This document shows positions 1,709 to 60,924 of a stretch of DNA of 61,451 nucleotides, piece by piece; position 1 is the stretch's first letter; each line of letters begins with the position of its first letter. The DNA comes from an uncultured Acetobacteraceae bacterium. GTDB lineage: Bacteria > Pseudomonadota > Alphaproteobacteria > Acetobacterales > Acetobacteraceae. Both the position numbers and the translations under genes were made by a program. The notes below the pieces were generated by a model. The model saw only the letters and a program-made list of their open reading frames with translations, ran no database searches and was not told where the DNA came from. Where the stretch lies: NCBI GenBank assembly GCA_903900905.1, contig CAIUPC010000584.1:1-61451 (forward strand), written 5' to 3'.

Positions 1709-2025
1709 GTGCAGCCCGCCAGTGCGCCGTTGATAGCGCGTGCAACCGCCCGGCCTTCGTCGGTCGGCATGACCACCACAAGCCGCCGATCCTCGGGGTC
1801 CGTGGCGCGCTGCAACAGGCCGTGCAGCGACAGGCGATCCAGCGCGCGGGTCACGACCGGCTTTTGCACGGCGAGCGCCTTGGCGATTTCGCGCACGCCC
1901 AGCCGGGGCACCGTCGCATGGGGTCGTGAGCCGTACACCGCCTCCATGACAGCCAGTTGCCGCAGCGACAGATCAAGAGGCGCGATTTTCTCGTGGCGCA
2001 CCAGCGCACAGAACGGGGTTTTCAA
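1705..2025 (-). CDS. MarR-family winged-HTH transcriptional regulator
   Basis: TTG start overlapping the gcrA stop; LSLRQLAVM...GVREIAKALAVQKPVVTRALDRL...GLLQRATDPEDRR is a MarR signature. Confidence 0.8.
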   Translation of the reverse strand: MKTPFCALVRHEKIAPLDLSLRQLAVMEAVYGSRPHATVPRLGVREIAKALAVQKPVVTRALDRLSLHGLLQRATDPEDRRLVVVMPTDEGRAVARAINGALAGCT

Positions 2026-2546
2026 GCGAGATCTCCTTTGGATTGATTGTCGCGCATGTCGCGCACCGGCACGTAGGCAACGCGCATGTGATCCGGGCAG
2101 TACGGTCGCCCCGGCACGCCTGCGGCTTCGCAGAACCGAAACGCCGGGGTTCCGGGGTCGCCAAGCGGGAAACAGCAGGGCTGCGGCTTGACCGATTGGA
2201 ACACCACGGGCGGCGGTGGCGGCGGTTCGGGCGGTGCCTGGATCACCGGGCGCGTGGCGCGACGTGGCGCGGCGTAAGATGCGACCTGCGGTAGCGTGGC
2301 GCTGCCCTTGGGCACGCGCTGCACGGCGATCTTCTTGGGCGTTCCGGGTGGCGGGATGGGCGAAGGCCGAGGCGTCAGGCCGAGGCGATGCGCCTTGCCC
2401 ACCACGGCGCTCTTGCTGCACCCCAACGCGCGGCCGATGACTGAGCCTGAATGGCCTTCCTCCCACATCTCGCGCAATTTGGCCTCGTGCTTCGCCCAAT
2501 CGACCGTCTCGATGGCGTGCGTCCGCTTTGCGTTGAGCGCCATCAC
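2022..2546 (-). CDS. gcrA: GcrA-family cell-cycle regulator homologue
   Basis: N-terminal W...LREMWEEGHSGSVIGRALGCSKSAVVGKAHRLGL and C-terminal CCFPLGDP..FRFC...GRPYCPDH..AY. Confidence 0.88.
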   Translation of the reverse strand: MMALNAKRTHAIETVDWAKHEAKLREMWEEGHSGSVIGRALGCSKSAVVGKAHRLGLTPRPSPIPPPGTPKKIAVQRVPKGSATLPQVASYAAPRRATRPVIQAPPEPPPPPPVVFQSVKPQPCCFPLGDPGTPAFRFCEAAGVPGRPYCPDHMRVAYVPVRDMRDNQSKGDLA

Positions 2547-4261
2547 TCGTCTCCCTCGTTGTCCGCCTCGGGCACATCACCTTCCTCGTCCCACGCTGCG
2601 GCGCTTGCACGCGGCTTGAACGGCGGTGCGTCAAACAGTGCGGGCGCCGGTCGCCAGTCGGGCAGCTTGCCTTCCAGCGCCTTGCGCATGGCGGAAACCT
2701 GCACCGGCACGGCGATGTCGGCCTCGCGGGCGGCGCGCGTCAGTTCCTCGCCTTTCAGCACGCCCAGCATTTCCGCGTCGTCGAGGCGCGGCGGGTCGAT
2801 GTCCAGCAGCGCGCCCACCCAATCCGCCATCGGGCCGCTGCTGGTGAACACGCCGGGCCCCGGACAGACCAGCACGCGGGCGATCATCTGGCACGCGATG
2901 TCCGTCACGTTGTCAGGCACCATTACGCGCCCATCTGCGTTGAAAAACGCGGGCAGCAGGTCATCGAAGCGCCCGCTGTGACCGTTGGGGTGCGGTGCGC
3001 CCCGGATCGACACATTCCGCGCCGCCAGCGTCAGGCACAGCGCGGCCAGCAACGTGCTGGGCCGAGTGCCCGGCTGATGTTCCAGCCCGGCCCGCAGCAT
3101 CGCATCCTTGCGCGCGGCGATCAGGTCGAGTGCTTTCTTCGTGTAGGCGTTGGTCGGTTCGCCTTCGCCGGCGTCGGGTGCATCTGTCGCCTGCGCTGCG
3201 GGCTTTGCCTTGGCCGATTTCTCGGCCATCGGCAGCGCGTAGCGGCGCACGATTGCTCCCATGTTCCAGCCGCTATCCACCACGGCGGTCACGATCTTGC
3301 CGGGGTCGCCCTTCTTGAGCGGCTTGGTGATGTCGATGTTGGTATATGCGAGTTCCCACCCGGCAGGCGGCTGCAACTGGCCGTCTTTCATCGTGCCCAG
3401 CAGCGGGCGCTTGCTTGCGGCAAGACGCTGCACGTCCTCGCGCAGCGCGGCAGTCTGGCAGTGCAAGAATTTTTCGGTGTCGGTGGTGGTAAATTGCTCG
3501 TCCGAGCCGGGTTCCGCGAACAGGTCTTCCTCGAACGTCAGGCCCACGGTGGCCTGGGCGGTAGCAGCGTCAAAGATTGCCCGTTTGAGCGGAATGCGGG
3601 TGCGTCGGCACGCCTGTTCAATCTGCCACCAAAGCGGTTCGTTGGCATTGCTGCGTTCCGCCCAAACCGCCGCTTGCACGTCGAGTGGCGCGTTGGCGAT
3701 GGTTGCCAGCGTGGAGAGCTTGGGCATGTCGCGGGCTGGCAATGCTGCCATCGCGTCCAGCATTGCGGGCAGAATGCGGCCCAGCACGCTCATGCGCCTC
3801 AAGTGCGCCTCGCCCATGCCCAGCGCCATTGCTGCCGTCTCTGGCGCGCAACCCTGCGCCACCATGCGCTGCACGGCGCGCCACTGGTCCACCGGGTGCA
3901 TCGGTGCCCGGACCATGTTCTCGGCGGCCTGCGACAGCGACGCATCGCCCGCCCGTTCGGCGACCAGCACCGCCATGATGTCCGTCCAGCCCAGCGCGCG
4001 GGCCGCACGCACGCGGCGGTGGCCGAATACCACCTGATGCCGCCCGGTCAGCGCATCGGCGGGCCGCAGCCCCACCGGCTGCAACAGGCCCAGCATGGAC
4101 ATGCTGGCGCGTAGCCCGGCGTCGGCATCGCCATCGGCTGCCACCCGGCGCACGTTGCCGGGGTCGTCGTCGATCAGCACCAGCGGCACGGTCCATGCCG
4201 CGGCGGGCGGTGCCGATGCGAAAGACCCCGCATCGGCTTCGGCTTGTGTGATGGTCAGCAT
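2543..4261 (-). CDS. ParB/RepB/Spo0J-family protein (ParB CTPase N-domain plus HTH, long C-terminus)
   Basis: NVRR...LRASM..LGLLQPVGLR...VVFGHRRVRAA...ENMVR motifs; start MLTIT at 4261 overlaps the stop of the Tas-like gene. Confidence 0.85.
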   Translation of the reverse strand: MLTITQAEADAGSFASAPPAAAWTVPLVLIDDDPGNVRRVAADGDADAGLRASMSMLGLLQPVGLRPADALTGRHQVVFGHRRVRAARALGWTDIMAVLVAERAGDASLSQAAENMVRAPMHPVDQWRAVQRMVAQGCAPETAAMALGMGEAHLRRMSVLGRILPAMLDAMAALPARDMPKLSTLATIANAPLDVQAAVWAERSNANEPLWWQIEQACRRTRIPLKRAIFDAATAQATVGLTFEEDLFAEPGSDEQFTTTDTEKFLHCQTAALREDVQRLAASKRPLLGTMKDGQLQPPAGWELAYTNIDITKPLKKGDPGKIVTAVVDSGWNMGAIVRRYALPMAEKSAKAKPAAQATDAPDAGEGEPTNAYTKKALDLIAARKDAMLRAGLEHQPGTRPSTLLAALCLTLAARNVSIRGAPHPNGHSGRFDDLLPAFFNADGRVMVPDNVTDIACQMIARVLVCPGPGVFTSSGPMADWVGALLDIDPPRLDDAEMLGVLKGEELTRAAREADIAVPVQVSAMRKALEGKLPDWRPAPALFDAPPFKPRASAAAWDEEGDVPEADNEGDE

Positions 4262-5307
4262 TCGATTGATTCCCCTTCGGAGGTGTTGGCAGCGCACGCC
4301 TTCCATGCCCGCCATAGATGTTCGACAAGCGCCTTGGTCATGACGCGCCGCGCGTCAGCATCCCGGTGGCCCAGCGTCCAATCGCGGCCTTCGGTCGCAG
4401 CCTTTCGACGGGCATATATTTCGCCGTAGATGCTGATGGCATGGGCGGGCGCATCGTCTTTGGCGCCGCGCCATTGGTGGCGGAAGAAGCTGTCCGCAAC
4501 GGCCCAAATTTCCGCACGGCGGGCCGGGCTGTAGCCATGCTCTTTGGCCGCGTCCGCGCCGGACTTGCGCTGTTGGCGTTCACCGTTGATGACGGCGAGG
4601 CCGAGGCGCTTCCACAACTTTTCGACGGTGGCGTAGTTGGACAGGTCGCCTGCTTCACCGACGATGATCGCAACGCCCTTCGGGCCGAGGCCGCGCACGC
4701 CCGATGCCCACGCCCAGACGGGCAGCGACTTCGCCAGCACTTCCATGCGCTTTTCGGTTTGCGTGCGGTGCGCGTCCCACGATTGGCGGGCTTGCGCGGA
4801 CAGCAGAATTAGCGGGGCGGCATCGGCATGTTGCCCTTGTCTGTTGCCAGCATGATCCTCACGGCCGATGCCGCCCTTCTCCACCTCGCGGCGGATGCGT
4901 TGCGCTTCGGCGAATGCCGCCTTGCGCTGTTTTTCATCTTGCTCGGCGTTGAACCCCAGACCGCGCGCAATGAACGACTCAATGGATCGGTCGCACCGGC
5001 TTTGGGATTTGATGCAGAAGCGCCGCTGCGATTGCAGTTCGCGCATCTCGGCAATGATGGCGGCTAGGTCATGTGCATTGTGGCTCGAACGAGCAACTAG
5101 TCCGTGGACCTGACCGCCGGGGGGCATTTCTTGATTGGCCGCGCTCTGTGGCAGCATATCAACGGCCCCCGTCTCGGAATTGGTGGCGATGGAAGCACTC
5201 GCTGTGCGGCGCTTGCGCGCACCCCTTCCGTGGCCTCCATCGCCTTGGGGCATCGCTTCAATGGCCGGATTAACCGGCATTGGGTGCTCGGCCCCAATCT
5301 CAAACAT
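4255..5307 (-). CDS. TasA-like Nop/IS110-Tnp-domain RNA-binding protein without an N-terminal RuvC/HNH nuclease
   Basis: Coiled coil (MRELQSQRRFCIK...RTQTEKRMEVLAKSLP) then GVRGLGPKGVAIIVGEAGDLSNY.TVEKLWKRLGL...YGEIYARRK...HRDADARRVMTKALVEHLWRAW, typical of the IS110/Nop C-terminal fold. No DEDD domain. AAGGAG RBS before the ATG at 5307; alternative ATG at 5046. Adjacent to and containing guide-like units. Confidence 0.8.
   Translation of the reverse strand: MFEIGAEHPMPVNPAIEAMPQGDGGHGRGARKRRTASASIATNSETGAVDMLPQSAANQEMPPGGQVHGLVARSSHNAHDLAAIIAEMRELQSQRRFCIKSQSRCDRSIESFIARGLGFNAEQDEKQRKAAFAEAQRIRREVEKGGIGREDHAGNRQGQHADAAPLILLSAQARQSWDAHRTQTEKRMEVLAKSLPVWAWASGVRGLGPKGVAIIVGEAGDLSNYATVEKLWKRLGLAVINGERQQRKSGADAAKEHGYSPARRAEIWAVADSFFRHQWRGAKDDAPAHAISIYGEIYARRKAATEGRDWTLGHRDADARRVMTKALVEHLWRAWKACAANTSEGESIEC
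4815..4876 (-). ncRNA. TIGR-like stem-loop guide unit 8 (inside the Tas coding region)
   Basis: GGGCGGCATCGG-CCG-TGAGGATCA-TG-CTGGCAACAG-ACA-AGGGCAACA-TG-CCGATGCCGCCC; perfect 12-bp outer stem. Confidence 0.8.
5059..5297 (-). ncRNA. TIGR-like stem-loop array, units 4-7
   Basis: Four units at 5245-5297, 5185-5244, 5120-5170 and 5059-5118, each stem-CC(A/G)-N9-TG-hairpin(10 or 13 nt)-CC(A/G)-N9-TG-complementary stem. Confidence 0.9.
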
Positions 5308-6037
5308 CGCCGTTCTCCTTCGCCTGTTCGTACAGCCGCGCCGCTTCTTCGCCCGTGCGGTATGTTCGGATCGGTAGGTGCGGCGGCAGGTTCGCGGTCA
5401 GCAGGCGGACAAAACGAACGTCTCGTGCGTGGCTGTCCGCCCACGCATTCGCTTCCGCCGATGTCAGGTCGCCAATCGGCATTCCGTTCGCCTTGAACGT
5501 GTCCAGCAGCGACTTGGCAGCAACGGCACCAACGGCGGCCATGCCCGCAGTGCCTTTGGCAGCACCGCCCGGCAGCGCGCGGGAATGCGCCGTGACGGCT
5601 ACAGGTTTGACGGAGGGGGCATATGCACATTGGCCAGTGTCGGCAGCGTTTTGTTGGCCCCCTCCGTCGTCCGAGGCGTGCGGCATAGGCGTAGCGGCCT
5701 TGCCGGGCACCCGGTCATCGGCCGCACGCTCGGAATTTTGGGAAGGGGCAGCCTGCTTCTGGCCAGTATTGGCAGCCAGCCTCTGGCCCCTTCCCGCTTC
5801 CCGCTGCAACGTCGCCGCTGCCTCGGTCAGCAACCTATCCAGCGCAGTGTATCGGTAATGCTGAAACAACGCGCGCAGCAGCGCCGCATCGGTTTCCACC
5901 GCCGCCCACACCACGTTGGCCGCTTCTGTGCGCGCCGGGTGACGCGCCAGTGCGTCGATAGCAATCTGGCGTAGCGTGTCCACCGATGCTTTGTAGCCCG
6001 CTGCGATGAACGCCTCGCGCATCGTTGTGTCAGTCAT
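5300..6037 (-). CDS. Hypothetical protein whose central linker is encoded by guide units 1-3
   Basis: 245-aa ORF with protein-like N-terminal (helical) and C-terminal (SLLDTFKANGMPIGDLT) parts flanking the array; coupled to both neighbours. Confidence 0.7.
   Translation of the reverse strand: MTDTTMREAFIAAGYKASVDTLRQIAIDALARHPARTEAANVVWAAVETDAALLRALFQHYRYTALDRLLTEAAATLQREAGRGQRLAANTGQKQAAPSQNSERAADDRVPGKAATPMPHASDDGGGQQNAADTGQCAYAPSVKPVAVTAHSRALPGGAAKGTAGMAAVGAVAAKSLLDTFKANGMPIGDLTSAEANAWADSHARDVRFVRLLTANLPPHLPIRTYRTGEEAARLYEQAKENGDV
5609..5795 (-). ncRNA. TIGR-like stem-loop array, units 1-3
   Basis: Units at 5740-5795, 5676-5729 and 5609-5668, e.g. GGGAAGGGG-CCA-GAGGCTGGC-TG-CCAATACTGG-CCA-GAAGCAGGC-TG-CCCCTTCCC. 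Confidence 0.9.
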
Positions 6038-6039
6038 CG

Positions 6040-7755
6040 TTATGCGCCCCGCTGGTTGAACTCGGCGCGCAGCGCCGAGGCGTGGTTGCGCAGGCGGGTT
6101 TTCAGCGTCACGGGCAGCAGCGCCATTTCGGCGTTGAACTCCGTCTCGTTGCCGAGCGCGGTCAGGTGATCCGCGTTGCCGCAGGCATTCACGCGCTGCA
6201 TCAGGCGCAGGAACGCCGGGCCGTGCTCGCCTAGATCCTCGGCGGGCTGGGGCGCGTCGTCAGGCTGCGCAGGCGGGGCGCTGGCCGGTTGTGCCGCCAC
6301 ATGCTGCCGAGAGGCTCCCAGCGCATCGCCACGATCCGCGATGGCCTTCTGCGAGGCCTTGCGGGTCACGCTGGGCAGCGTTCCGATGACGCCCGCGTTG
6401 AGGTTGGACCACGCGGCCAGATCGTCTGCCGTGTTGATTGCGGCCAGATGGTCCGCCACCAGCGCCAGATAGCCGCCCAGATCGGGCTTGCCGCCCTTGG
6501 TGGGCACCGTCAGCGGTGCGGGCGCTTTCGCTTGCTGTGCGGCGGGTGCGCCCACCAGCGCCGCAACGTCGGCATCGAACGCCTCTCCCGCTTTCGGGTT
6601 CGCTCGCCGTGCCGCGTCGATTTCATCGGCGTTGTTCTCCATCAAGGCGGGCACGTTGCGGCTGGTCAGCGCCATGTTGGACAGCGCACGCAGATACACG
6701 GCGGGGTCGCGGAAATGGCTGTTGCCCTCCGCCAATTCCCCGAACTCGTCCACCAGGTATGCCTCGTATGGGCCGGGGTCGGGCTCGCGCGGCGCATGGG
6801 GCTGGGCAGGCGCGGCGGCGTGCGTCTCAGCCTCGGGCCGCACGTCCGGTGCGGTAGCAGCGGGGGCCTGAGCGGCGGGCTGTGCGGCCGCCTGCATGGC
6901 GCGTGCGGCTTGTTCGGCAGCGAGGCGGGGCGGGTTCTGCTCCACAATGCCGTTGGGCATCATCACGCGCAGCGATTCCGCAGCACGGCGGAATTCGGCT
7001 TCGCCACCGGCCCGCGTTGCGTCGCCCAGCCCGCTGATCTGGTCCAGCGTCAGCGCTTCGACGAGGCGGCGATCAATGGGCACCGACTTCGATGCAGCGA
7101 ACCGCAGCACTTGCGACCGCTTTTCCTCCAACACGGAGTCGGTGATCACATCGTCTTTGCCGAGTGCCAGCATCTTGTGCTTCCACTCGAGTTGCACGGC
7201 TTGGTCAATAATCGCCAGCACCGCGTTGCGGTACGCCTTCGCCTCGGCAATCACGCTGTAATGCGGCCGGGCAAATTTTGACCCGTCGCGCCGCGATTCC
7301 AGCGCCGACTCGCGCTTGCGGACTTGCAGCGTGTTGCCCGTCTTGATGTCCGTCACTTCGACAAGGACTTCGTAGTAGTCGTCCTCGGCCTTGAGCGCGT
7401 CGATCAACTTCACATCGACATTCATCGGCACGCCGTCAGCCGGGTAGCTGGTGAACGTGAACAGCGCGCCGATTTTCGTCACGCTCGCCAGCAGGCGATG
7501 CTTGATGCCGCCATAATGCGAGGCCAGATGGCGCGCACCGATCACGCTAATGCCGGTGACTTCGGTGCCGCTCACCTTGAACGAATAGACGAACTTGCTG
7601 CTGCCGCTGCCGTGGATGATTTCCTGCGCGATCAGGGCATTGTCGCGCTCGTCCATAACGTGCCAAGCGTCCACGTCGAAGCTGCCGCTGGCGTTGCGTA
7701 CGGCTTCCAGTGTTTGGGTGCGCGCTCGTGTCGGCGCGTTGCCAAAACCGCTCAT
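6040..7755 (-). CDS. Hypothetical protein, possibly recombination/ssDNA-annealing related
   Basis: 571 aa with a globular N-terminal domain and Ala/Pro-rich linkers; function inferred only from early-operon position. Confidence 0.5.
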   Translation of the reverse strand: MSGFGNAPTRARTQTLEAVRNASGSFDVDAWHVMDERDNALIAQEIIHGSGSSKFVYSFKVSGTEVTGISVIGARHLASHYGGIKHRLLASVTKIGALFTFTSYPADGVPMNVDVKLIDALKAEDDYYEVLVEVTDIKTGNTLQVRKRESALESRRDGSKFARPHYSVIAEAKAYRNAVLAIIDQAVQLEWKHKMLALGKDDVITDSVLEEKRSQVLRFAASKSVPIDRRLVEALTLDQISGLGDATRAGGEAEFRRAAESLRVMMPNGIVEQNPPRLAAEQAARAMQAAAQPAAQAPAATAPDVRPEAETHAAAPAQPHAPREPDPGPYEAYLVDEFGELAEGNSHFRDPAVYLRALSNMALTSRNVPALMENNADEIDAARRANPKAGEAFDADVAALVGAPAAQQAKAPAPLTVPTKGGKPDLGGYLALVADHLAAINTADDLAAWSNLNAGVIGTLPSVTRKASQKAIADRGDALGASRQHVAAQPASAPPAQPDDAPQPAEDLGEHGPAFLRLMQRVNACGNADHLTALGNETEFNAEMALLPVTLKTRLRNHASALRAEFNQRGA

Positions 7756-20394: not shown

Positions 20395-21006
20395 ATGGCA
20401 GCGCGACGCAAGGCACCAGCACCAGCGACGCCGCCCGCAACTGCCGGGTTGAGCATCGAATACCGCGCGCTCGCCACACTCGCCCCGTATGAGCGCAACG
20501 CACGCACGCACAGCGCCGCACAGGTGGCGCAGATCGCGGCGTCAATCAAAGAGTTCGGCTTCACCAATCCGCTGCTGATCGGCGAAGCGGGCGACCTGAT
20601 AGCCGGGCATGGGCGACTGGCCGCGGCTCATCTGCTTGAGATGGCGACCGTGCCGGTCATCGTCCTGCGCGGCCTGAGTGACGCGCAGCGCAAGGCGCTC
20701 CGCATTGCCGACAACCGGCTGCCGTTGAGCGCCGGATGGGACGAGGCGCTGCTGGCCGCCGAGATCGAAGACTTGAAACTCGAGGAATATAACCTCGACG
20801 TTATGGGCTTTGACGCCGCCGAACTTGAACATGTGCTGAACGGCTGGGCACCGAACATGGATGCCATCAACAAAACCCCGGCAGAAAATGCCGCAATGCT
20901 GGCGACGATCAAGGTGAAATGCTTTCAGAGCGTCGCTGGCATTGTGTCGGAAGCGGTCAAGGCGGCAGTGGACGCACTTAGCCTGGACGGCGTCACCGTT
21001 GAATAG
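20395..21006 (+). CDS. ParB/Srx N-terminal domain protein
   Basis: LAPYERNARTHS.AQVAQIAASIKEFGFTNPLL...IAGHGRLAAA...IADNRL...WD. Confidence 0.85.
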   Translation: MAARRKAPAPATPPATAGLSIEYRALATLAPYERNARTHSAAQVAQIAASIKEFGFTNPLLIGEAGDLIAGHGRLAAAHLLEMATVPVIVLRGLSDAQRKALRIADNRLPLSAGWDEALLAAEIEDLKLEEYNLDVMGFDAAELEHVLNGWAPNMDAINKTPAENAAMLATIKVKCFQSVAGIVSEAVKAAVDALSLDGVTVE

Positions 21007-21886
21007 CAAACAGCCGCCGAAAACCAATGTCTTGGTGGCATGGCCTTACTGCAACGCGGAAGCCCAGCGCAGCATTATTGAACTAGGAGAAAATGCCAGA
21101 GTTCTTATAGATAGCGGTGCCTTTACGGCATTCAAAGCGAAGAAAACTTTGCTGGTATCGGATTACTGTCAATTTCTAAGTGCATTGCCGTTCAAGCCGT
21201 GGCGCTATTTTGCGCTGGATGTAATTGGCGATCCGGCAGGCACCGACCGCAATTATCAGACCATGTTGGATCGTGGGTTCCGCCCGGTGCCTGTGTTTAC
21301 AAGAGGCGCGTCGCTTGATGCGCTGGACAAGCTGTATGAGACGAGCGATGTCGTTGGTCTAGGCGGCGTTGCCGGTGCAGATAAGTCCGCCTATGCTTGG
21401 ACACGATTTGTGATGCACCACGTTGCAGGACGAAAGGTTCACATTCTAGGTTTTACCAACCTGAATTGGATCAAGCATCTTCGGCCTTATTCGGTAGATG
21501 CGTCGTCTTGGAAATCTGCGGGCCGCTACAAAACGGCAGAAGTTTACCGCGGATTTGGCCGCATGGAGCGCATCACCGCCGCTGACATTCGCGCGGGCAA
21601 GCGGCCGTCCAGCGGCGCGGTTACTGCCTTGCGCACCCTTGGATACGACGCCGCTCACTTGGCCGGGCAGTCCGCATGGGTCGGGATGGACGGGCTTCAT
21701 TGCGCGCAAGTTGCATCGACGCGCAGTTGGGTCGCATGTTCGGCGGACATGGAGCGCAATGTAGGCGTGCGGATGTTCTTCGCGTCAGATGGAAAAGCGG
21801 ACATCACGAGGATTAAAGCCGCGCGCACTGCCCTTGAAAACATGGGCCATCCCGCCATGCAGCCGTACAAACATGCGTCGGATTAA
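20999..21886 (+). CDS. dpdA: DpdA/TGT-like guanine transglycosylase (7-deazaguanine insertion into DNA)
   Basis: VLIDSGAF, LDVIGD, VPVF, GLGG, VHILG and SVDASSW TGT-barrel motifs next to que genes; TTG start assumed. Confidence 0.75.
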   Translation: MNSKQPPKTNVLVAWPYCNAEAQRSIIELGENARVLIDSGAFTAFKAKKTLLVSDYCQFLSALPFKPWRYFALDVIGDPAGTDRNYQTMLDRGFRPVPVFTRGASLDALDKLYETSDVVGLGGVAGADKSAYAWTRFVMHHVAGRKVHILGFTNLNWIKHLRPYSVDASSWKSAGRYKTAEVYRGFGRMERITAADIRAGKRPSSGAVTALRTLGYDAAHLAGQSAWVGMDGLHCAQVASTRSWVACSADMERNVGVRMFFASDGKADITRIKAARTALENMGHPAMQPYKHASD

Positions 21887-21900
21887 ATTGGAAGAATGCC

Positions 21901-22686
21901 ATGAGTAATGCTTGCGTGATTCTTTCAGGCGGCCAAGACAGCACGACTTGCTTGTTCTGGGCGCGGCAGCACTTCGCCGAGGTTCACGCGGTCACGTTCG
22001 ACTACGGGCAGAAGCACCGCATCGAACTGGACGCTGCGCGCGAGGTGGCTGAGATGGCGGGCGTCGCGTCCCATGAAGTGATCGCTGTGCCGGGCATCCT
22101 GCATGGCCGCTCGCCGCTGGTGAACGCCGCCGAGGCGCTGGAAACCTACGACAGCTTCGCCAGCATGGATCAGATCATCGGCGAGCGCGTAGAGCGGACA
22201 TTTGTGCCGATGCGCAATCTGCTGTTCCTTGTGCTAGCCGCCAACCGTGCGATTTGCGCCAACATCCGGGATCTGGTGACCGGCGTATGCCAGGCCGACA
22301 ATGCCAATTATCCGGACTGCCGCGCCTCGTTTGTCTCGGGCGCAGAGAGCGCGATCACGCTGGCACTCGGCCTCGACAAGCCGGGCTTCGGGCCGGGGTT
22401 CACGGTTCACACGCCGCTGATCGACATGAGCAAGGCCGACAGCATCCGGCTGGCGCAATCGCTGCCGGGCTGCATGGACGCGCTCGCCTACAGCCACACC
22501 GCCTACGATGGCACCTATCCGCCGGTCAGCATGGATCATGCCAGCGTGCTCCGCGCGCACGGCTTCGAGCAAGCAGGCGTCCCGGACCCGCTCGTGCTTC
22601 GCGCGTGGCGCGAGGGCCTGATGCCGCTGCCAGCGACCGCCAATTACGCCGCCCAGCGCGCGCAGCCAGGGCTTGCCTTCGCGTAG
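21901..22686 (+). CDS. queC: 7-cyano-7-deazaguanine synthase
   Basis: SGGQDSTTC PP-loop, FDYGQKH..EL, TFVPMRN, YPDCR. Confidence 0.92.
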   Translation: MSNACVILSGGQDSTTCLFWARQHFAEVHAVTFDYGQKHRIELDAAREVAEMAGVASHEVIAVPGILHGRSPLVNAAEALETYDSFASMDQIIGERVERTFVPMRNLLFLVLAANRAICANIRDLVTGVCQADNANYPDCRASFVSGAESAITLALGLDKPGFGPGFTVHTPLIDMSKADSIRLAQSLPGCMDALAYSHTAYDGTYPPVSMDHASVLRAHGFEQAGVPDPLVLRAWREGLMPLPATANYAAQRAQPGLAFA

Positions 22687-22786
22687 CAGCGCCGTACAGC
22701 GCGCTTCGCACCGGCCCGCGCCTGTCGGGGCTTGCGTCGCTGGGAACGCTGCGTGCGCTCAGCGGAGCAGCGGGCAGCACACATGC

Positions 22787-22818
22787 AAAAGCCCCACCCG
22801 ATTGCTCGGATGGGGCCC
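22787..22818 (-). terminator. Intrinsic terminator of the minus-strand insert
   Basis: GCCCCA(T)CCGA...TCGG(G)TGGGGC hairpin followed by TTTT on the minus strand. Confidence 0.55.
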
Positions 22819-22836
22819 TGATGCGGCGCGGCAGAA

Positions 22837-23058
22837 TTAGCGGCGAGAACGCGCGGCGTTGAATCGGTCATGCAGCGGCGACCACAGTTTGAGATGGTCG
22901 CGTAGCGGGCGGAAGACGCAAAGTGTGCCACGCGGCATCGGCGGGCCGTCATTTTCACCTTTGAGCAGGTCGCGGCGTTCGGCAGGCGTCATCGGCGGTT
23001 GGCGGCGCGACAACGGGAACGCAAAGCGATATAGTCCGGATTGGTTGCGCATGGTCAT
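22837..23058 (-). CDS. Hypothetical protein
   Basis: AGGAGG RBS before MTMRNQ. Confidence 0.35.
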   Translation of the reverse strand: MTMRNQSGLYRFAFPLSRRQPPMTPAERRDLLKGENDGPPMPRGTLCVFRPLRDHLKLWSPLHDRFNAARSRR

Positions 23059-23093
23059 CCTCCTGTGATGCGGTGCAGCAGCGTAGCCGAGTC

Positions 23094-23285
23094 TCAGCGG
23101 CGCGGCTCCGGCATGTAGTCGATGTCCCAGAACCAGCCACGCGGGCTGACGTGCAGGCGGATCACGTTGCGCCACGCGGGGCCGTTGGCAGCCGCGGCCG
23201 CAGCAGCGTCGCGCAGCACGTCAGCAAGCCCCGGACCGATTTGATGGTGTTCGGGCGGGTCGAAGTCGGGATCGAAAGCGGTCAT
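23094..23285 (-). CDS. Hypothetical protein
   Basis: GAGG RBS before MTAFDPDF; leader hairpin at 23302-23319. Confidence 0.5.
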   Translation of the reverse strand: MTAFDPDFDPPEHHQIGPGLADVLRDAAAAAAANGPAWRNVIRLHVSPRGWFWDIDYMPEPRR

Positions 23286-23364
23286 GGCAACCTCATGTAA
23301 CGCGGGGCGGACTGCCCTCGCTGTCGCGACCTTGGCCGGGCCGTTGGAGCATGTCTCCGCTCCC

Positions 23365-23402
23365 AAACAAAGAAAGCCCCGCCCAATTGCTCGGGCGGGG
23401 CT
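23365..23402 (-). terminator. Intrinsic terminator
   Basis: AGCCCCGCCC...GGGCGGGGCT followed by TTCTTTGTTT on the minus strand. Confidence 0.75.
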
Positions 23403-23417
23403 GCTGGGCAGTAGGTG

Positions 23418-24320
23418 CTATTTGGCAGCGATCAGCCGATAGACGGTGTTTCCGCCCTTTTCGCGCTCGCTGCTGAACGTGTAGCCGAACTTCTCCGCAG
23501 CGTCCTTGAGCATCTGCGTCCACGGCTGGGCCTTGTCGCTGATTTCGGCGGCCAGCTGCGGGCGGGTCACGCCCTCGGGGCGCAACGCCAGTTCGATCAT
23601 CTTGGCCGTCTTGGCGTTCGGTCCGGTCGCCTTGGGCGCGCGCTCGCCCTTGGCTGCGGCGGGCTTCGGCTCCTTGCGCGGCTTGCCGCCGACGATGGCC
23701 GCCTTGGCGCGCTTGCCCTTCGGCGTGCCGACCATCTCCGTGCCGGTCGGCGACGTGACCATGATCGAGAAGCCCAATTTCCGGGCGTAGTCTTGCGCCG
23801 CGTTCAGCGCGAGATGATCGGCGGCGCGTTCGATGGTGAACGAGCAGCGGTAGGCGCGGGCGGGATTGAGCATCGCTTCCTCCTCGTTGAACAATGCGAG
23901 CGCTTCGGCTTGCGTCAGGTCGGCGACCGTCTTGGCGGCGACCGCCTGATCAGCGGCCACGCTGTCGATCATGGCGTCCAGCGTGCCGGGCTGCACGATG
24001 TCGCCGCTGCGGTCGTCATATGTCAGCGGCGCGGCCAGTTCGGCTTCGCCGGGCACGGCGACCGCCTGCGAGTCCGTCATGTCCTCGTCGGCCAGCCACG
24101 CGGCGGTCTCGGCTGAGAGGCGAGCGCGCATCTGGTCGGGCGTCTCGGCTTCAACGGCGACCGGCGCGGGTTCGACGGACTCGGCGGCAGCGACCGGCGC
24201 GGCGGCGGCGTAAGTCCAAGTCATGCCGTCCTGCACGAACGTCAGCGCGATGACATCAAGGCCAGCGCGGCGAGCGCCACGGATAGCGGAAGCCTTGGAG
24301 CCGTAGGTTTGGATGGTCAT
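23418..24320 (-). CDS. DUF3489-like C-terminal winged-helix protein
   Basis: KTAKMIELALRPEGVT...YTFSSEREKGGNTVYRL; GAGGA RBS before MTIQTYG. Confidence 0.6.
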   Translation of the reverse strand: MTIQTYGSKASAIRGARRAGLDVIALTFVQDGMTWTYAAAAPVAAAESVEPAPVAVEAETPDQMRARLSAETAAWLADEDMTDSQAVAVPGEAELAAPLTYDDRSGDIVQPGTLDAMIDSVAADQAVAAKTVADLTQAEALALFNEEEAMLNPARAYRCSFTIERAADHLALNAAQDYARKLGFSIMVTSPTGTEMVGTPKGKRAKAAIVGGKPRKEPKPAAAKGERAPKATGPNAKTAKMIELALRPEGVTRPQLAAEISDKAQPWTQMLKDAAEKFGYTFSSEREKGGNTVYRLIAAK

Positions 24321-24456
24321 TCGAGTGATCCTCTGCACTGCGGGGCGACATGCCCTCGCTGAGTCGGACATTCGCCCACAGTTAAAAGCCGGGCAAGCCA
24401 GATATTCGCTGAATATCGGTCAAAATCGGGCGTTATCCGGCGAGTTTGCGCAATAA

Positions 24457-25143
24457 ATGGAACCACCCTACGTGACAACGGCTGACACGATTATTGGGCG
24501 GCTTGCAGCAGCGGGCGTTCCATATCTAGCAAACTCCAACATTTCCAACGTGCTGGAGCCGGGCGACGTGGCCGCAATCGAGGCCGAAGCAGAACAGCAC
24601 TTGCTGGCGCTCCTGCGCTGCTTGGTCATCGACGTGGATCACGACCACAATACGCGCGACACAGCCGCCCGCGTGGCGCGGATGTTCGTTCGTGAAGTGT
24701 TCGCGGGCCGCTATCAGCCGCAGCCCCGCTTGACCTCGTTCCCGAACGTGAACCAAGTCGATCAGTGCTACGCAGTCGGACCGATCACCGTGCGCTCGGC
24801 CTGCTCGCACCACCTCGTGCCCATCCACGGCCAGGCATGGGTGGGCGTGATACCGGGCGAGCGCCTGATAGGACTGAGCAAATTCCACCGTTTGGTGGAA
24901 TGGGTAATGGCGCGGCCGCAAATCCAAGAGGAAGCCGCGAACCAGCTTGCCGACGCCATCGAGCAGGCGGTTCAGCCCCGGGCGCTGGCGGTCATCGTGC
25001 GGGCTTCGCACATGTGCTGCGAGTGGCGAGGCGTGCGGGATAACGGCTCCCTGATGACCACCAGCGTCATGCGCGGCCTGTTCAAGCAGGACAGCGACGC
25101 ACGGCGCGAGTTCCTGACCCTCATTCGCGGAATGCAATACTGA
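24457..25143 (+). CDS. folE: GTP cyclohydrolase I
   Basis: DTAARVARMF, SACSHHL, GLSKF.R, RPQIQE, HMCCEWRG. Confidence 0.95.
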   Translation: MEPPYVTTADTIIGRLAAAGVPYLANSNISNVLEPGDVAAIEAEAEQHLLALLRCLVIDVDHDHNTRDTAARVARMFVREVFAGRYQPQPRLTSFPNVNQVDQCYAVGPITVRSACSHHLVPIHGQAWVGVIPGERLIGLSKFHRLVEWVMARPQIQEEAANQLADAIEQAVQPRALAVIVRASHMCCEWRGVRDNGSLMTTSVMRGLFKQDSDARREFLTLIRGMQY

Positions 25144-25577
25144 TGGCCTACCGCATCACGCGCCGCCACGAAATCCACTGCGGCCACCGTGTCACCGGCC
25201 ACGAGTCCAAATGCGCGCACTTGCATGGGCACGCCTATGTGTTCGATCTGACGTGCGAGGCAGCCGAACTTGACCCGCTTGGCCGCGTAATCGACTTCGC
25301 CGTTATCAAGGAGCGCGTGTGCCGCTGGCTTGAGGATGTGTGGGACCATCGGATGCTGCTGTGGCAGCACGACCCGATGTTGCCGGGCCTGCGCGCGCTG
25401 GACCCGTCTGTCGTCGCCGTGCCGTTCAACCCGACCGCCGAGAATATCGCGCGGTTCGTGGTCGATGTGGTCGGGCCGCAGACACTCGAAGGCACCGGCG
25501 TTCGGCTCGTCGCCGTGTCGGTGCAAGAGACCAGCAAGTGTTCCGCGCAGTATGAAGCGCCGCGCCATGACGCCTGA
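25143..25577 (+). CDS. queD: 6-carboxy-5,6,7,8-tetrahydropterin synthase
   Basis: GHRV..HESKC.HLHGH, VIDF, WDH, NPTAEN, ET. Confidence 0.92.
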   Translation: MAYRITRRHEIHCGHRVTGHESKCAHLHGHAYVFDLTCEAAELDPLGRVIDFAVIKERVCRWLEDVWDHRMLLWQHDPMLPGLRALDPSVVAVPFNPTAENIARFVVDVVGPQTLEGTGVRLVAVSVQETSKCSAQYEAPRHDA

Positions 25578-26253
25578 CCCCGACGAACTGCCGGTCAACG
25601 AACTGTTCGACACGATTCAGGGTGAGGCGACGTGGGCCGGCACGCCCAGCACGTTCGTTCGATTGCAAGGCTGCGCAGTCGGTTGCCCATGGTGCGATAC
25701 CAAGCACACCTGGGCGTGCGACCCGCAGAAAGCGCGCACGTTCGTTGAAATCCTGCACAAGGACGGCGACGCGGCCAGTTATGCGATGGTTCGCCTGTCG
25801 TTCTTGCTGAACGAGATGCACCACCGCAAGCCGCGGCATGTGGTGATCACCGGCGGCGAGCCATGCGAGCATGACCTGACGCAACTAACCGCAGGCATCG
25901 CGCGGCTGTCGGCGCGGGCGCAAATCGAAACCAGCGGCACCAGCCCGATTCGCGCAGCCCCGAGCGCGTGGGTCACGCTGTCGCCGAAGTTGGACATGCC
26001 GGGCGGAAAGCCGGTGCTGGCCGATAGCGTCCAGCGCGCGGACGAGATCAAGATGCCGGTCGGCAAGGCCGCTGACATTGAAAAACTGGCGGCATTCCTG
26101 CGCGAGCATCGCAGTGACCGCGTGCGGCAGATACCTGTGTGGCTTCAACCGCTGTCGATGAGCAAGGCAGCCACGGCGCTGTGCGTGCAGGCCTGTTTCG
26201 AGCATGGCTGGCGCGTGTCGGTGCAGACGCACAAGTTCATGGGGCTGCGATGA
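25567..26253 (+). CDS. queE: 7-carboxy-7-deazaguanine synthase (radical SAM)
   Basis: ELFDTIQGE...FVRLQGCAVGCPWCDT, ITGGEP, IETSG, SPK, SVQTHK. Confidence 0.93.
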   Translation: MTPDPDELPVNELFDTIQGEATWAGTPSTFVRLQGCAVGCPWCDTKHTWACDPQKARTFVEILHKDGDAASYAMVRLSFLLNEMHHRKPRHVVITGGEPCEHDLTQLTAGIARLSARAQIETSGTSPIRAAPSAWVTLSPKLDMPGGKPVLADSVQRADEIKMPVGKAADIEKLAAFLREHRSDRVRQIPVWLQPLSMSKAATALCVQACFEHGWRVSVQTHKFMGLR

Positions 26254-59721: not shown

Positions 59722-59951
59722 ATGGTTTTCACTCCTGAGTGGTAGCCCTCTGTTTTCACTGTGCATCCAAGAACTGCCGCAAGCCGTTCCGTTATTTCCT
59801 CTTGGAATAAACGGTCTGGCATGTTCGCAACGGCTGACAATATATCTTCAACTTTGACAATCCTGCAACTTTCTACGGTCACATGATATGTGTCAAAATC
59901 GTCGTTGACCGGGCATTTGCATCTGTGGGTCAGTTCATACCGGACGATCAC
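59706..59951 (-). CDS. Minimal QueF-like (T-fold) protein
   Basis: CKCPVNDDFDTY (Cys...Asp spacing as in the QueF/QueF-L active site), FQEE, HSGV; lies between TGT-like and VUT genes. Confidence 0.55.
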   Translation of the reverse strand: MIVRYELTHRCKCPVNDDFDTYHVTVESCRIVKVEDILSAVANMPDRLFQEEITERLAAVLGCTVKTEGYHSGVKTICVAF

Positions 59952-60640
59952 GCGATCAACTCCAATTGTTCAACGGCGCGAGGCGAAAACCGCGCCGGGC
60001 ATTGCGCCTGATCCCAGCGGTCGGCCATTTTGCGAGGCGAGTGTTGCGGCAGATGGTGGTTCTGCGCGATGTCGGTGCTATCCACCGATGCAAACGGCCA
60101 CCGATGCCCACTGCATTGCATCCCGCGCAACATGTGGACTGGCGGCGTGCGCGCGAATGTCTGTGCCAATTGCGACCATGCCTCATCCATCCTGCGGCAC
60201 CATGCGTCGGACAAAACCACGGCGTATTCAGCGGTCGATCCGATGCACACGCGCGACCATCCGTCGTCCACCAACCGGCACAGTCGATAAATCGGTTCGT
60301 CCATGTGCCAGACTGGCGCGGCTTGTTTTTTGCCGTGCGGCCATTCGTTCAGCAGCGCGTCTTGCTCCTGCGATGGTGCGTCAATAACGTCTGGCGAGAT
60401 TGCCCATGTCGTCGGGTAGTCAAGCCACTGGTCGCACCATGCGTAATATTTCGGCCAGTTCGTCGGCTTACCGCGCCGCCATTGAGAGAATGCACCGTTA
60501 TCAAGCATCACGGATTGGCCTATGTCATGCACCCGGCGTGCGTCAGTAGGCGCAGCGTGCGACACACAGAAACACCGGCCTCGCAGTTCGTAGAGTGCGG
60601 ACATCGGGGTAATCGGGGTGCCGTGGTAGTGCAGGGTCAC
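59948..60640 (-). CDS. Second TGT/DpdA-like transglycosylase
   Basis: HYHGTPITP, MLDNGAFS, PDVID, PVWH, VCIGS, VHMLRG, SVDST; GTG start overlapping the upstream stop. Confidence 0.7.
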   Translation of the reverse strand: MTLHYHGTPITPMSALYELRGRCFCVSHAAPTDARRVHDIGQSVMLDNGAFSQWRRGKPTNWPKYYAWCDQWLDYPTTWAISPDVIDAPSQEQDALLNEWPHGKKQAAPVWHMDEPIYRLCRLVDDGWSRVCIGSTAEYAVVLSDAWCRRMDEAWSQLAQTFARTPPVHMLRGMQCSGHRWPFASVDSTDIAQNHHLPQHSPRKMADRWDQAQCPARFSPRAVEQLELIA

Positions 60641-60924
60641 GGCGGCGTCACGCTCTCTGCGATGTCTGGAAAATACGGCCTCAGAACTTTGTCGCAAGCT
60701 TCAGCAATGTCGTCCACAACGTATATCAGCGGTTCTGACTCGCGTTCATCGCACGCTTTGCAGTAAACGGTTTCCAGCGCCGCCCGCAGTCGCGCAATCT
60801 CGGCGTCCTGCGCGCGGATCTTCTCGCAATAGCGAGTCTCTGCTTTCAGAAGTTCGTTGATCCGCTCAAGCCGCTCTCGATTGGTCAGCAATCGCGGGTC
60901 GCCGTGGCGCATCTCGGCGCTCAT
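60637..60924 (-). CDS. Hypothetical protein
   Basis: AGGAG RBS; AEIARLRAALE motif. Confidence 0.55.
   Translation of the reverse strand: MSAEMRHGDPRLLTNRERLERINELLKAETRYCEKIRAQDAEIARLRAALETVYCKACDERESEPLIYVVDDIAEACDKVLRPYFPDIAESVTPP

Follow-up and report, generated by a model that had tools for sequence, protein, structure and literature searches.

A stem-loop TIGR-TasA locus of a temperate phage carries its eight guides inside tasA and a companion gene

The window analysed here, 61,451 nt long, is the complete contig C584 (GenBank CAIUPC010000584.1, from an uncultured Acetobacteraceae bacterium) of genome bin G000, which scored 100% complete, in 922 contigs. Searches against Pfam and PHROGs found terminase, portal, capsid, tail sheath, baseplate, integrase, CI-like repressor, DnaB, GcrA and 7-deazaguanine genes. 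This gene set is that of a temperate myovirus, and the phage is near-complete. Its minus strand holds a 1.8-kb two-gene cassette, made up of tasA and an upstream companion gene, and all eight dual-spacer guide units of the locus lie inside these genes: U1-U3 in a linker of the companion and U4-U8 in tasA. The features, in the order in which the minus strand is read, are as follows.

5300..6037, minus strand: companion gene, 245 amino acids, with a helical N-domain (residues ~1-89), a guide-coded linker and a conserved C-domain (~175-241)
5740..5795, minus strand: guide U1, core 5749-5786, companion residues 84-97
5676..5729, minus strand: guide U2, core 5684-5721, companion residues 106-118
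5609..5668, minus strand: guide U3, core 5620-5657, companion residues 127-140
4255..5307, minus strand: tasA, 350 amino acids, Nop-domain protein with neither RuvC nor HNH
5245..5297, minus strand: guide U4, core 5251-5291, 13-nt loop, TasA residues 6-19
5185..5244, minus strand: guide U5, core 5196-5233, TasA residues 25-38
5120..5170, minus strand: guide U6, core 5125-5165, 13-nt loop, TasA residues 48-61
5059..5118, minus strand: guide U7, core 5070-5107, one stem mismatch, TasA residues 67-80
4815..4876, minus strand: guide U8, core 4827-4864, second box ACA, coiled-coil-tip loop, TasA residues 148-161

An earlier note on this DNA had described the eight minus-strand units, and all of their coordinates, boxes, spacers, TG ends and loops were confirmed. 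Each of the eight carries two spacers, all 16 spacers are 9 nt long, and 15 of the 16 upstream boxes are CCA (nine) or CCG (six), with a single ACA. The loops measure 10 nt in six units and 13 nt in two. The layout given in the note stands, with two small corrections: the U7 stem contains a single C-A mismatch, and the inner stems of U2 and U6 consist of just two unbroken pairs plus the box G-C pair. A strict scan requiring at least five unbroken outer and at least three unbroken inner pairs recovered five of the eight units in 4700-5900, whereas 500 dinucleotide shuffles of this interval did not yield a single unit; across the whole window it returned six, against a mean of 0.2 in 30 shuffles. 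Every unit also folds better than its shuffles (z -2.1 to -5.1), and an Rfam search gave chance microRNA matches only. Variable palindromic stems take the place of edge repeats, which is a feature of the stem-loop TIGR class.

The further claim that the stems differ in sequence while pairing is kept was borne out by compensatory changes. In a set of six window units and two units of locus L109, from which the two 13-nt-loop units were omitted, 94% of the named pairs are kept (37-49% in slid controls) and 8 of the 13 pairs have changed on both sides (0-1 of 500 shuffles); because the rows are kin and themselves served to define the structure, these figures support pairing and are not a probability. 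In a locus tree of 65 rows, with loci of fewer than two units or short matches excluded, the window and L109 are sisters (support 98/93) nested among relatives with 4-nt loops, the length found in most close relatives. Both sisters have hairpin loops, which are a recent change common to the window and this one sister locus. A frame-preserving growth of the loop from 4 to 10 and 13 nt was not upheld, the L109 loop being 14 nt long.

The protein encoded at 4255-5307 is TasA, a Tas-family Nop protein without a nuclease. The sole PDB sequence match is TaTasR (9MTY, E 1.7e-8), and Foldseek with the TasA model placed TasR and TasH structures at all of ranks 1-10. VIA fold comparison gave Z 15.2 for TasR (root-mean-square deviation 2.6, 188 aligned) and 14.6 for TasH, followed by Z 12.6 for the IS110 recombinase ISCro4 in third place and 7.7 for the next match. 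The NCBIfam model TIGR_Tas_endo matched with E 8e-24 (84.8 bits, below its curated cut-off of 100). Neither Pfam nor the structure model revealed a RuvC, HNH or DEDD nuclease domain. The earlier note had read this frame as a nuclease-less, TasA-type Nop-domain protein served by stem-loop guides; the protein family, the fold ranking (Tas structures at the top, IS110 third) and the match to the published layout of stem-loop TIGR guide RNAs all agree with it. In the structure model (mean predicted local distance difference test, pLDDT, 82), residues 1-72, encoded by guides U4-U7, are predicted to be disordered (pLDDT <50), while from residue 78 onwards the model consists of helices, with a coiled coil and a Nop C-terminal domain. 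TasA has W310-x3-H314 and R321-x3-K325, which reproduce the spacing, compared without alignment, of the box-C contacts W295/H299/R306/K310 of PlTasA (Guan et al. 2026, 10.64898/2026.08.11.744272). R321 and K325 are invariant across 114 homologues. A C-terminal Y/H processing loop is absent, the 15 residues after W335 containing neither Tyr nor His.

A sequence search with TasA residues 90-350 found 654 relatives. A metagenome scan with the single TasA sequence gave no match, but an alignment-based scan did find relatives. The gene occurred in none of 100 drawn relatives and in 2 of 400 family genomes. Across the related loci we counted 523 units in 188 loci, 79 of which hold at least three (duplicates included). 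Units concentrate at tas, with 171 in 228 kb near the gene and 25 in 2.18 Mb elsewhere (81 sequences). One reading frame would put a stop in 42 of 69 non-coding units, and it is used by only 3 of the 242 distinct units that lie in the tas frame. Because units nearly avoid this frame, coding constrains unit placement. In the window, U4-U7 encode the disordered N-terminus of TasA and U8 a loop at the tip of its coiled coil, and many relatives also carry a unit at the U8 place. The earlier note, sound on the units and the protein, overlooked the companion gene, the intragenic position of the guides and the clade-wide covariation of spacer ends described below. Some tas loci (L006, L007, L088, L116, L118, L121, L128 and most of L038-L080) showed no CCA/CCG-9-TG units; these may use other boxes or spacer lengths. 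The closest relative of viral size (L130:10001-10803, 70% segment identity) has, in the assembly, its tas match split between frames, with six units intact. At L138, three units share a near-identical spacer B, two of them also spacer A, which is a recent unit duplication.

The start codon of tasA overlaps the stop of the companion gene. Among close loci, defined by a tas score of at least 143 bits and at least 1.2 kb of flank (a threshold set after the list had been inspected), a C-domain profile placed the companion just upstream of tas in 46 of 50, as compared with 5 of 97 more distant loci. In 38 of 45 distinct pairs a tas-frame start codon lies at the companion stop, so that translation of the two genes is usually coupled, and 24 of the 45 have guide units inside the companion. 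A reverse search from the companion found tas in 5 of 7 viral loci; of the others, the L192 contig ends 300 bp on, yet shows units, and at L193:5524-6219 a companion with a short linker has neither tas nor evident guide units near it. The link between companion and tas is therefore strong but not absolute, and since the loci are kin and not independent, the co-occurrence may reflect inherited synteny. The family comprises 447 representatives at E <= 0.001, and both domains model well. No significant match to a family or fold appeared in Pfam, PHROGs, NCBIfam, BFVD or Atlas features. Foldseek against the PDB gave a best E of 0.39, to UvrA, part of which the C-domain resembles at a level that is not significant, and no VIA match reached a Z of 5 in a comparison that barely probed the C-domain.

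The spacers of related loci change quickly, and they change in pairs. Comparing units with near-identical stems at like positions (279 comparisons), we found both spacers different in 243, both kept in 24 and an intermediate state in 12; in none had one spacer been kept while the other was wholly replaced. Both spacers are thus replaced jointly, and L109 itself retains the stems of the window with different spacers. Spacers also show the 4-mer bias of genomic DNA (z 12, and 5.6 when only the 144 non-coding spacers are counted), and therefore they were likely copied from real DNA.

The two spacers of a guide are also related to each other. Among 438 distinct guides of related loci, the last bases of spacers A and B (A9 and B9) are complementary in 194 (44%), as against ~25% expected from base counts (z 9.1); the next highest of the 81 position pairs reaches 3.6. 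The effect is present downstream of tas (28/69), within tasA (110/243) and upstream (56/126), irrespective of loop type. Word bias and covariation appear only when spacer A is joined to the reverse complement of spacer B. For the complementary pairs, codon phase agrees with an overlap of 1 bp (z 2.9 with the shared bases removed) and the other phases are negative; the 'control' rows of this test equal it by symmetry and were left unused. No codon coherence was found for abutting 18-mers. The values would be matched if roughly one guide in four read a 17-bp site, which suggests that the guides of the clade point in part to targets of 17 bp whose central pair is shared. Alternatively, A9 and B9 could pair with each other inside the RNA, in the middle of the complex; the footprint would be 17 bp under both readings. 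Complementary ends are a property of the clade, and the window's own guides show them in one of eight. In two other DNA runs from the study that yielded the contig, no spacer variants were seen where the locus was covered.

We consider that the locus is probably a temperate-phage stem-loop TIGR-TasA system, with in-frame guides in tasA and the companion, that would bind DNA without cutting it and so likely hold down rival phages or further mobile elements. Binding of DNA and repression have been demonstrated for TasA by Xu et al. (2026, 10.64898/2026.09.09.750476), and published TasA systems show single-unit processing, a dimer on one RNA, strand-split pairing and repression. For the window we infer that TasA would be expressed, its guides processed and DNA bound. 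The eight units would likely be cut singly from an early operon transcript, and each guide would be loaded singly on a predicted TasA dimer, giving, as for published TasA, a 2:1 protein:RNA complex in which spacer A reads one strand and spacer B the other. Such a complex would bind a DNA site of 17-18 bp. Both spacers would be acquired from a single unbroken site and would often have its central base pair in common, and selection among acquired spacers would keep the reading frames open. Because no match to the phage itself or to the bin was found and spacers turn over fast, we infer that the targets are foreign mobile DNA. In this way TasA and its eight guides would likely let the phage bind and silence chosen foreign DNA.

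Several results weigh against this interpretation. The eight guides have no exact target in the window or in G000 in any of four geometries, with gaps of 0-2, also with the central bases left free. Sets of 154, 416 and 438 guides matched phage loci plus G000 no more often than control geometries did (2.3-3.7 Mb of phage loci for the sets of 416 and 438), exact 17-mers likewise found nothing (0/194), and 60 prophage-containing regions of relatives (1.13 Mb) held no exact target in the expected geometry and no excess; the related DNA searched came to ~4.8 Mb in total. A CUU motif at the stem base, which has been reported as frequent though not as defining for the stem-loop class, is absent from all eight window units; in the clade it occurs at the 5' base in 11 of 236 units and at the 3' base in 33 of 236. 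The second box of U8 is non-canonical, and one of the eight window guides shows A9/B9 complementarity (P 0.07 under the clade rate). Finally, the phage is linked to G000 by binning alone, and the bin may differ from its true host: no attachment-site (att) core, spacer match, tRNA or long shared DNA linking the two was found, nor a terminal repeat. RecA of G000 is 86-90% identical to that of five alphaproteobacterial genomes, with Acidiphilium and Acidisoma at the top, and most of the nearest named tas loci belong to Acetobacteraceae-related genomes.

Two narrower ideas about targets were rejected. Targeting of kin through silent-codon variants gave no silent-only near-match in the window and 7 among 255 guides of other loci, compared with 3-5 per control geometry. 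Guides aimed at the tas of other phages gave three near-matches at the WKRxGLAV motif, one of them by U5, and controls did equally well. The highest-ranking of the 438 guides, L173:10618 (= L097), has a predicted target that reads WKRMGL of Tas, one mismatch from the L034 tas, with controls again equal.

The same ribonucleoprotein might instead use its guides to silence genes of the host chromosome, such as those for defence, while the phage infects or persists as a lysogen, a role named as possible by Xu et al. (10.64898/2026.09.09.750476). The window spacers have a GC content of 53%, compared with 65-66% for phage and bin, and G000 contains four one-mismatch sites when the spacers are joined with a 1-bp overlap, while the remaining 14 cells hold 0-2, a weak hint in the same direction. 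Four is a small count, however, 117 close-clade guides showed no clear excess in G000, and the bin, which has no exact site in spite of its completeness, may not be the true host. We regard host silencing as unlikely.

Less probable still is a role on the DNA of the phage itself, in which the complex would regulate genes, aid integration or take part in partition with the adjacent ParB-like protein. This protein (2543..4261, minus strand, 572 amino acids) is encoded by a gene whose start overlaps the tasA stop, the phage also encodes an integrase, and Faure et al. (PMC12045711) describe tasParB operons and propose an integrase aid. But the contig has no site with fewer than three mismatches in 18, the phage genes contain no silent-only near-match, and self-targeting would leave the fast spacer turnover unexplained. 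Moreover, a ParB-like gene adjoins tas in 1 of 188 loci, the window, and in none of the 187 related ones; it is a neighbour and not a conserved part of the system.

At a similarly low level of probability, the locus could be real but disused, its guides stale or unprocessed and retained as linker-coding DNA only. The lack of targets and of CUU, the variant box of U8 and the derived hairpin loops would fit such decay; on the other hand, stems and boxes are intact in all eight units with compensatory changes, both frames are open, TasA retains the box-C-binding residues, and L109 combines the same stems with different spacers. An IS110-like recombinase remnant accompanied by bridge-RNA-like hairpins, or by chance structure in GC-rich coding DNA, is very improbable: the weak Pfam Transposase_20 match (E 0.055), the transposase label of PHROG 4285 and the third rank of IS110 by fold are outweighed by the absence of a DEDD/RuvC domain (residues 1-72 being disordered), which refutes this reading unless such a domain acts in trans, the higher rank of Tas structures, the failure of 500 shuffles to give a unit, and the presence of eight independent dual-spacer units where one two-loop RNA would be expected.

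Returning to the reading as a TIGR-TasA system, a tentative and rather doubtful extension is that the clade has a two-protein system, in which the coupled companion, itself a carrier of guides, would supply what stem-loop systems lack for maturing guides or acquiring spacers (or would assist repression). New guides would then be copied from a single 17-bp stretch whose central pair both spacers share, replacing the core of an existing hairpin in frame.

The cassette is part of a run of leftward genes located downstream of the repressor, and a weak promoter-like site lies at 9183-9155 (two sites found, 1.1 expected). In lambdoid phages early genes are laid out in this manner, and by this likeness the cassette probably belongs to an early operon. 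The same run includes a phage-encoded GcrA-like cell-cycle regulator (2022-2546, minus strand; Pfam E 1.4e-22). Directly upstream of the companion, the gene at 6040-7755 (minus strand, 571 amino acids) has no match in Pfam, PHROGs or NCBIfam and no relative in the 187 other tas loci. A 7-deazaguanine DNA-modification set lies at 20942-26253 and 59948-60697, with two tRNA-guanine-transglycosylase-like genes, QueC, GTP cyclohydrolase and QueE.

The system itself is not new, since stem-loop TIGR-TasA is a published kind. Both main papers (PMC12045711; 10.64898/2026.09.09.750476) name spacer gain, stem-loop guide maturation and targets as open, and the locus offers a compact test bed for them, with a two-gene cassette in a near-complete temperate phage and a candidate accessory protein. 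The shared-central-base rule, a statistical one, changes how natural targets should be searched for, and it may inform guide design for TasA repressors. A companion with nested guides and a spacer-end overlap were found in neither these two papers nor 10.64898/2026.08.11.744272 and 10.64898/2026.09.22.753630, as far as their available parts go; the supplements may hold the clade. In those parts, Faure et al. report no obvious spacer covariation, having tested gaps and not overlaps.

Among known systems, the IS110 bridge-RNA recombinases (IS621, ISCro4) share the Nop-like RNA-binding fold (Z 12.6) with the window protein, which differs in having no DEDD domain, single bridge RNA or transposon context. 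The tasA-tasParB operons of Faure et al. likewise have a ParB-like gene after tasA; they combine dual-repeat arrays with a conserved ParB linkage, whereas the window has a stem-loop array, a unique ParB neighbour and, as its conserved partner, an unrelated upstream gene. TasR and TasH (TaTasR 9MTY, SpTasH 9W04/21KL) agree with TasA in fold, box C/D motifs and 9-nt spacers, but unlike these dual-repeat systems the window lacks a nuclease, edge and loop repeats and the C-terminal Y/H loop. The nearest comparators are the stem-loop systems PlTasA (Faure PMC12045711; Guan 10.64898/2026.08.11.744272), BlTasA and MbTasA (Xu 10.64898/2026.09.09.750476). They share with the window a solo Nop domain with a disordered N-terminus and no Y/H processing loop, units in which boxes C and D bound two 9-nt spacers, variable stems and subarrays. 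Guides within tas and extended loop hairpins in other clades have already been published (Xu et al. 2026, 10.64898/2026.09.09.750476). The window differs from these systems in that its guides are all intragenic, with a further conserved gene housing three of them, that its internal guide lies at the coiled-coil tip and not, as in BlTasA, in the wedge loop, and that the CCG box is common and CUU missing from the stem bases. Lastly, A9/B9 complementarity is seen clade-wide, whereas the published structures used 9+9 targets.

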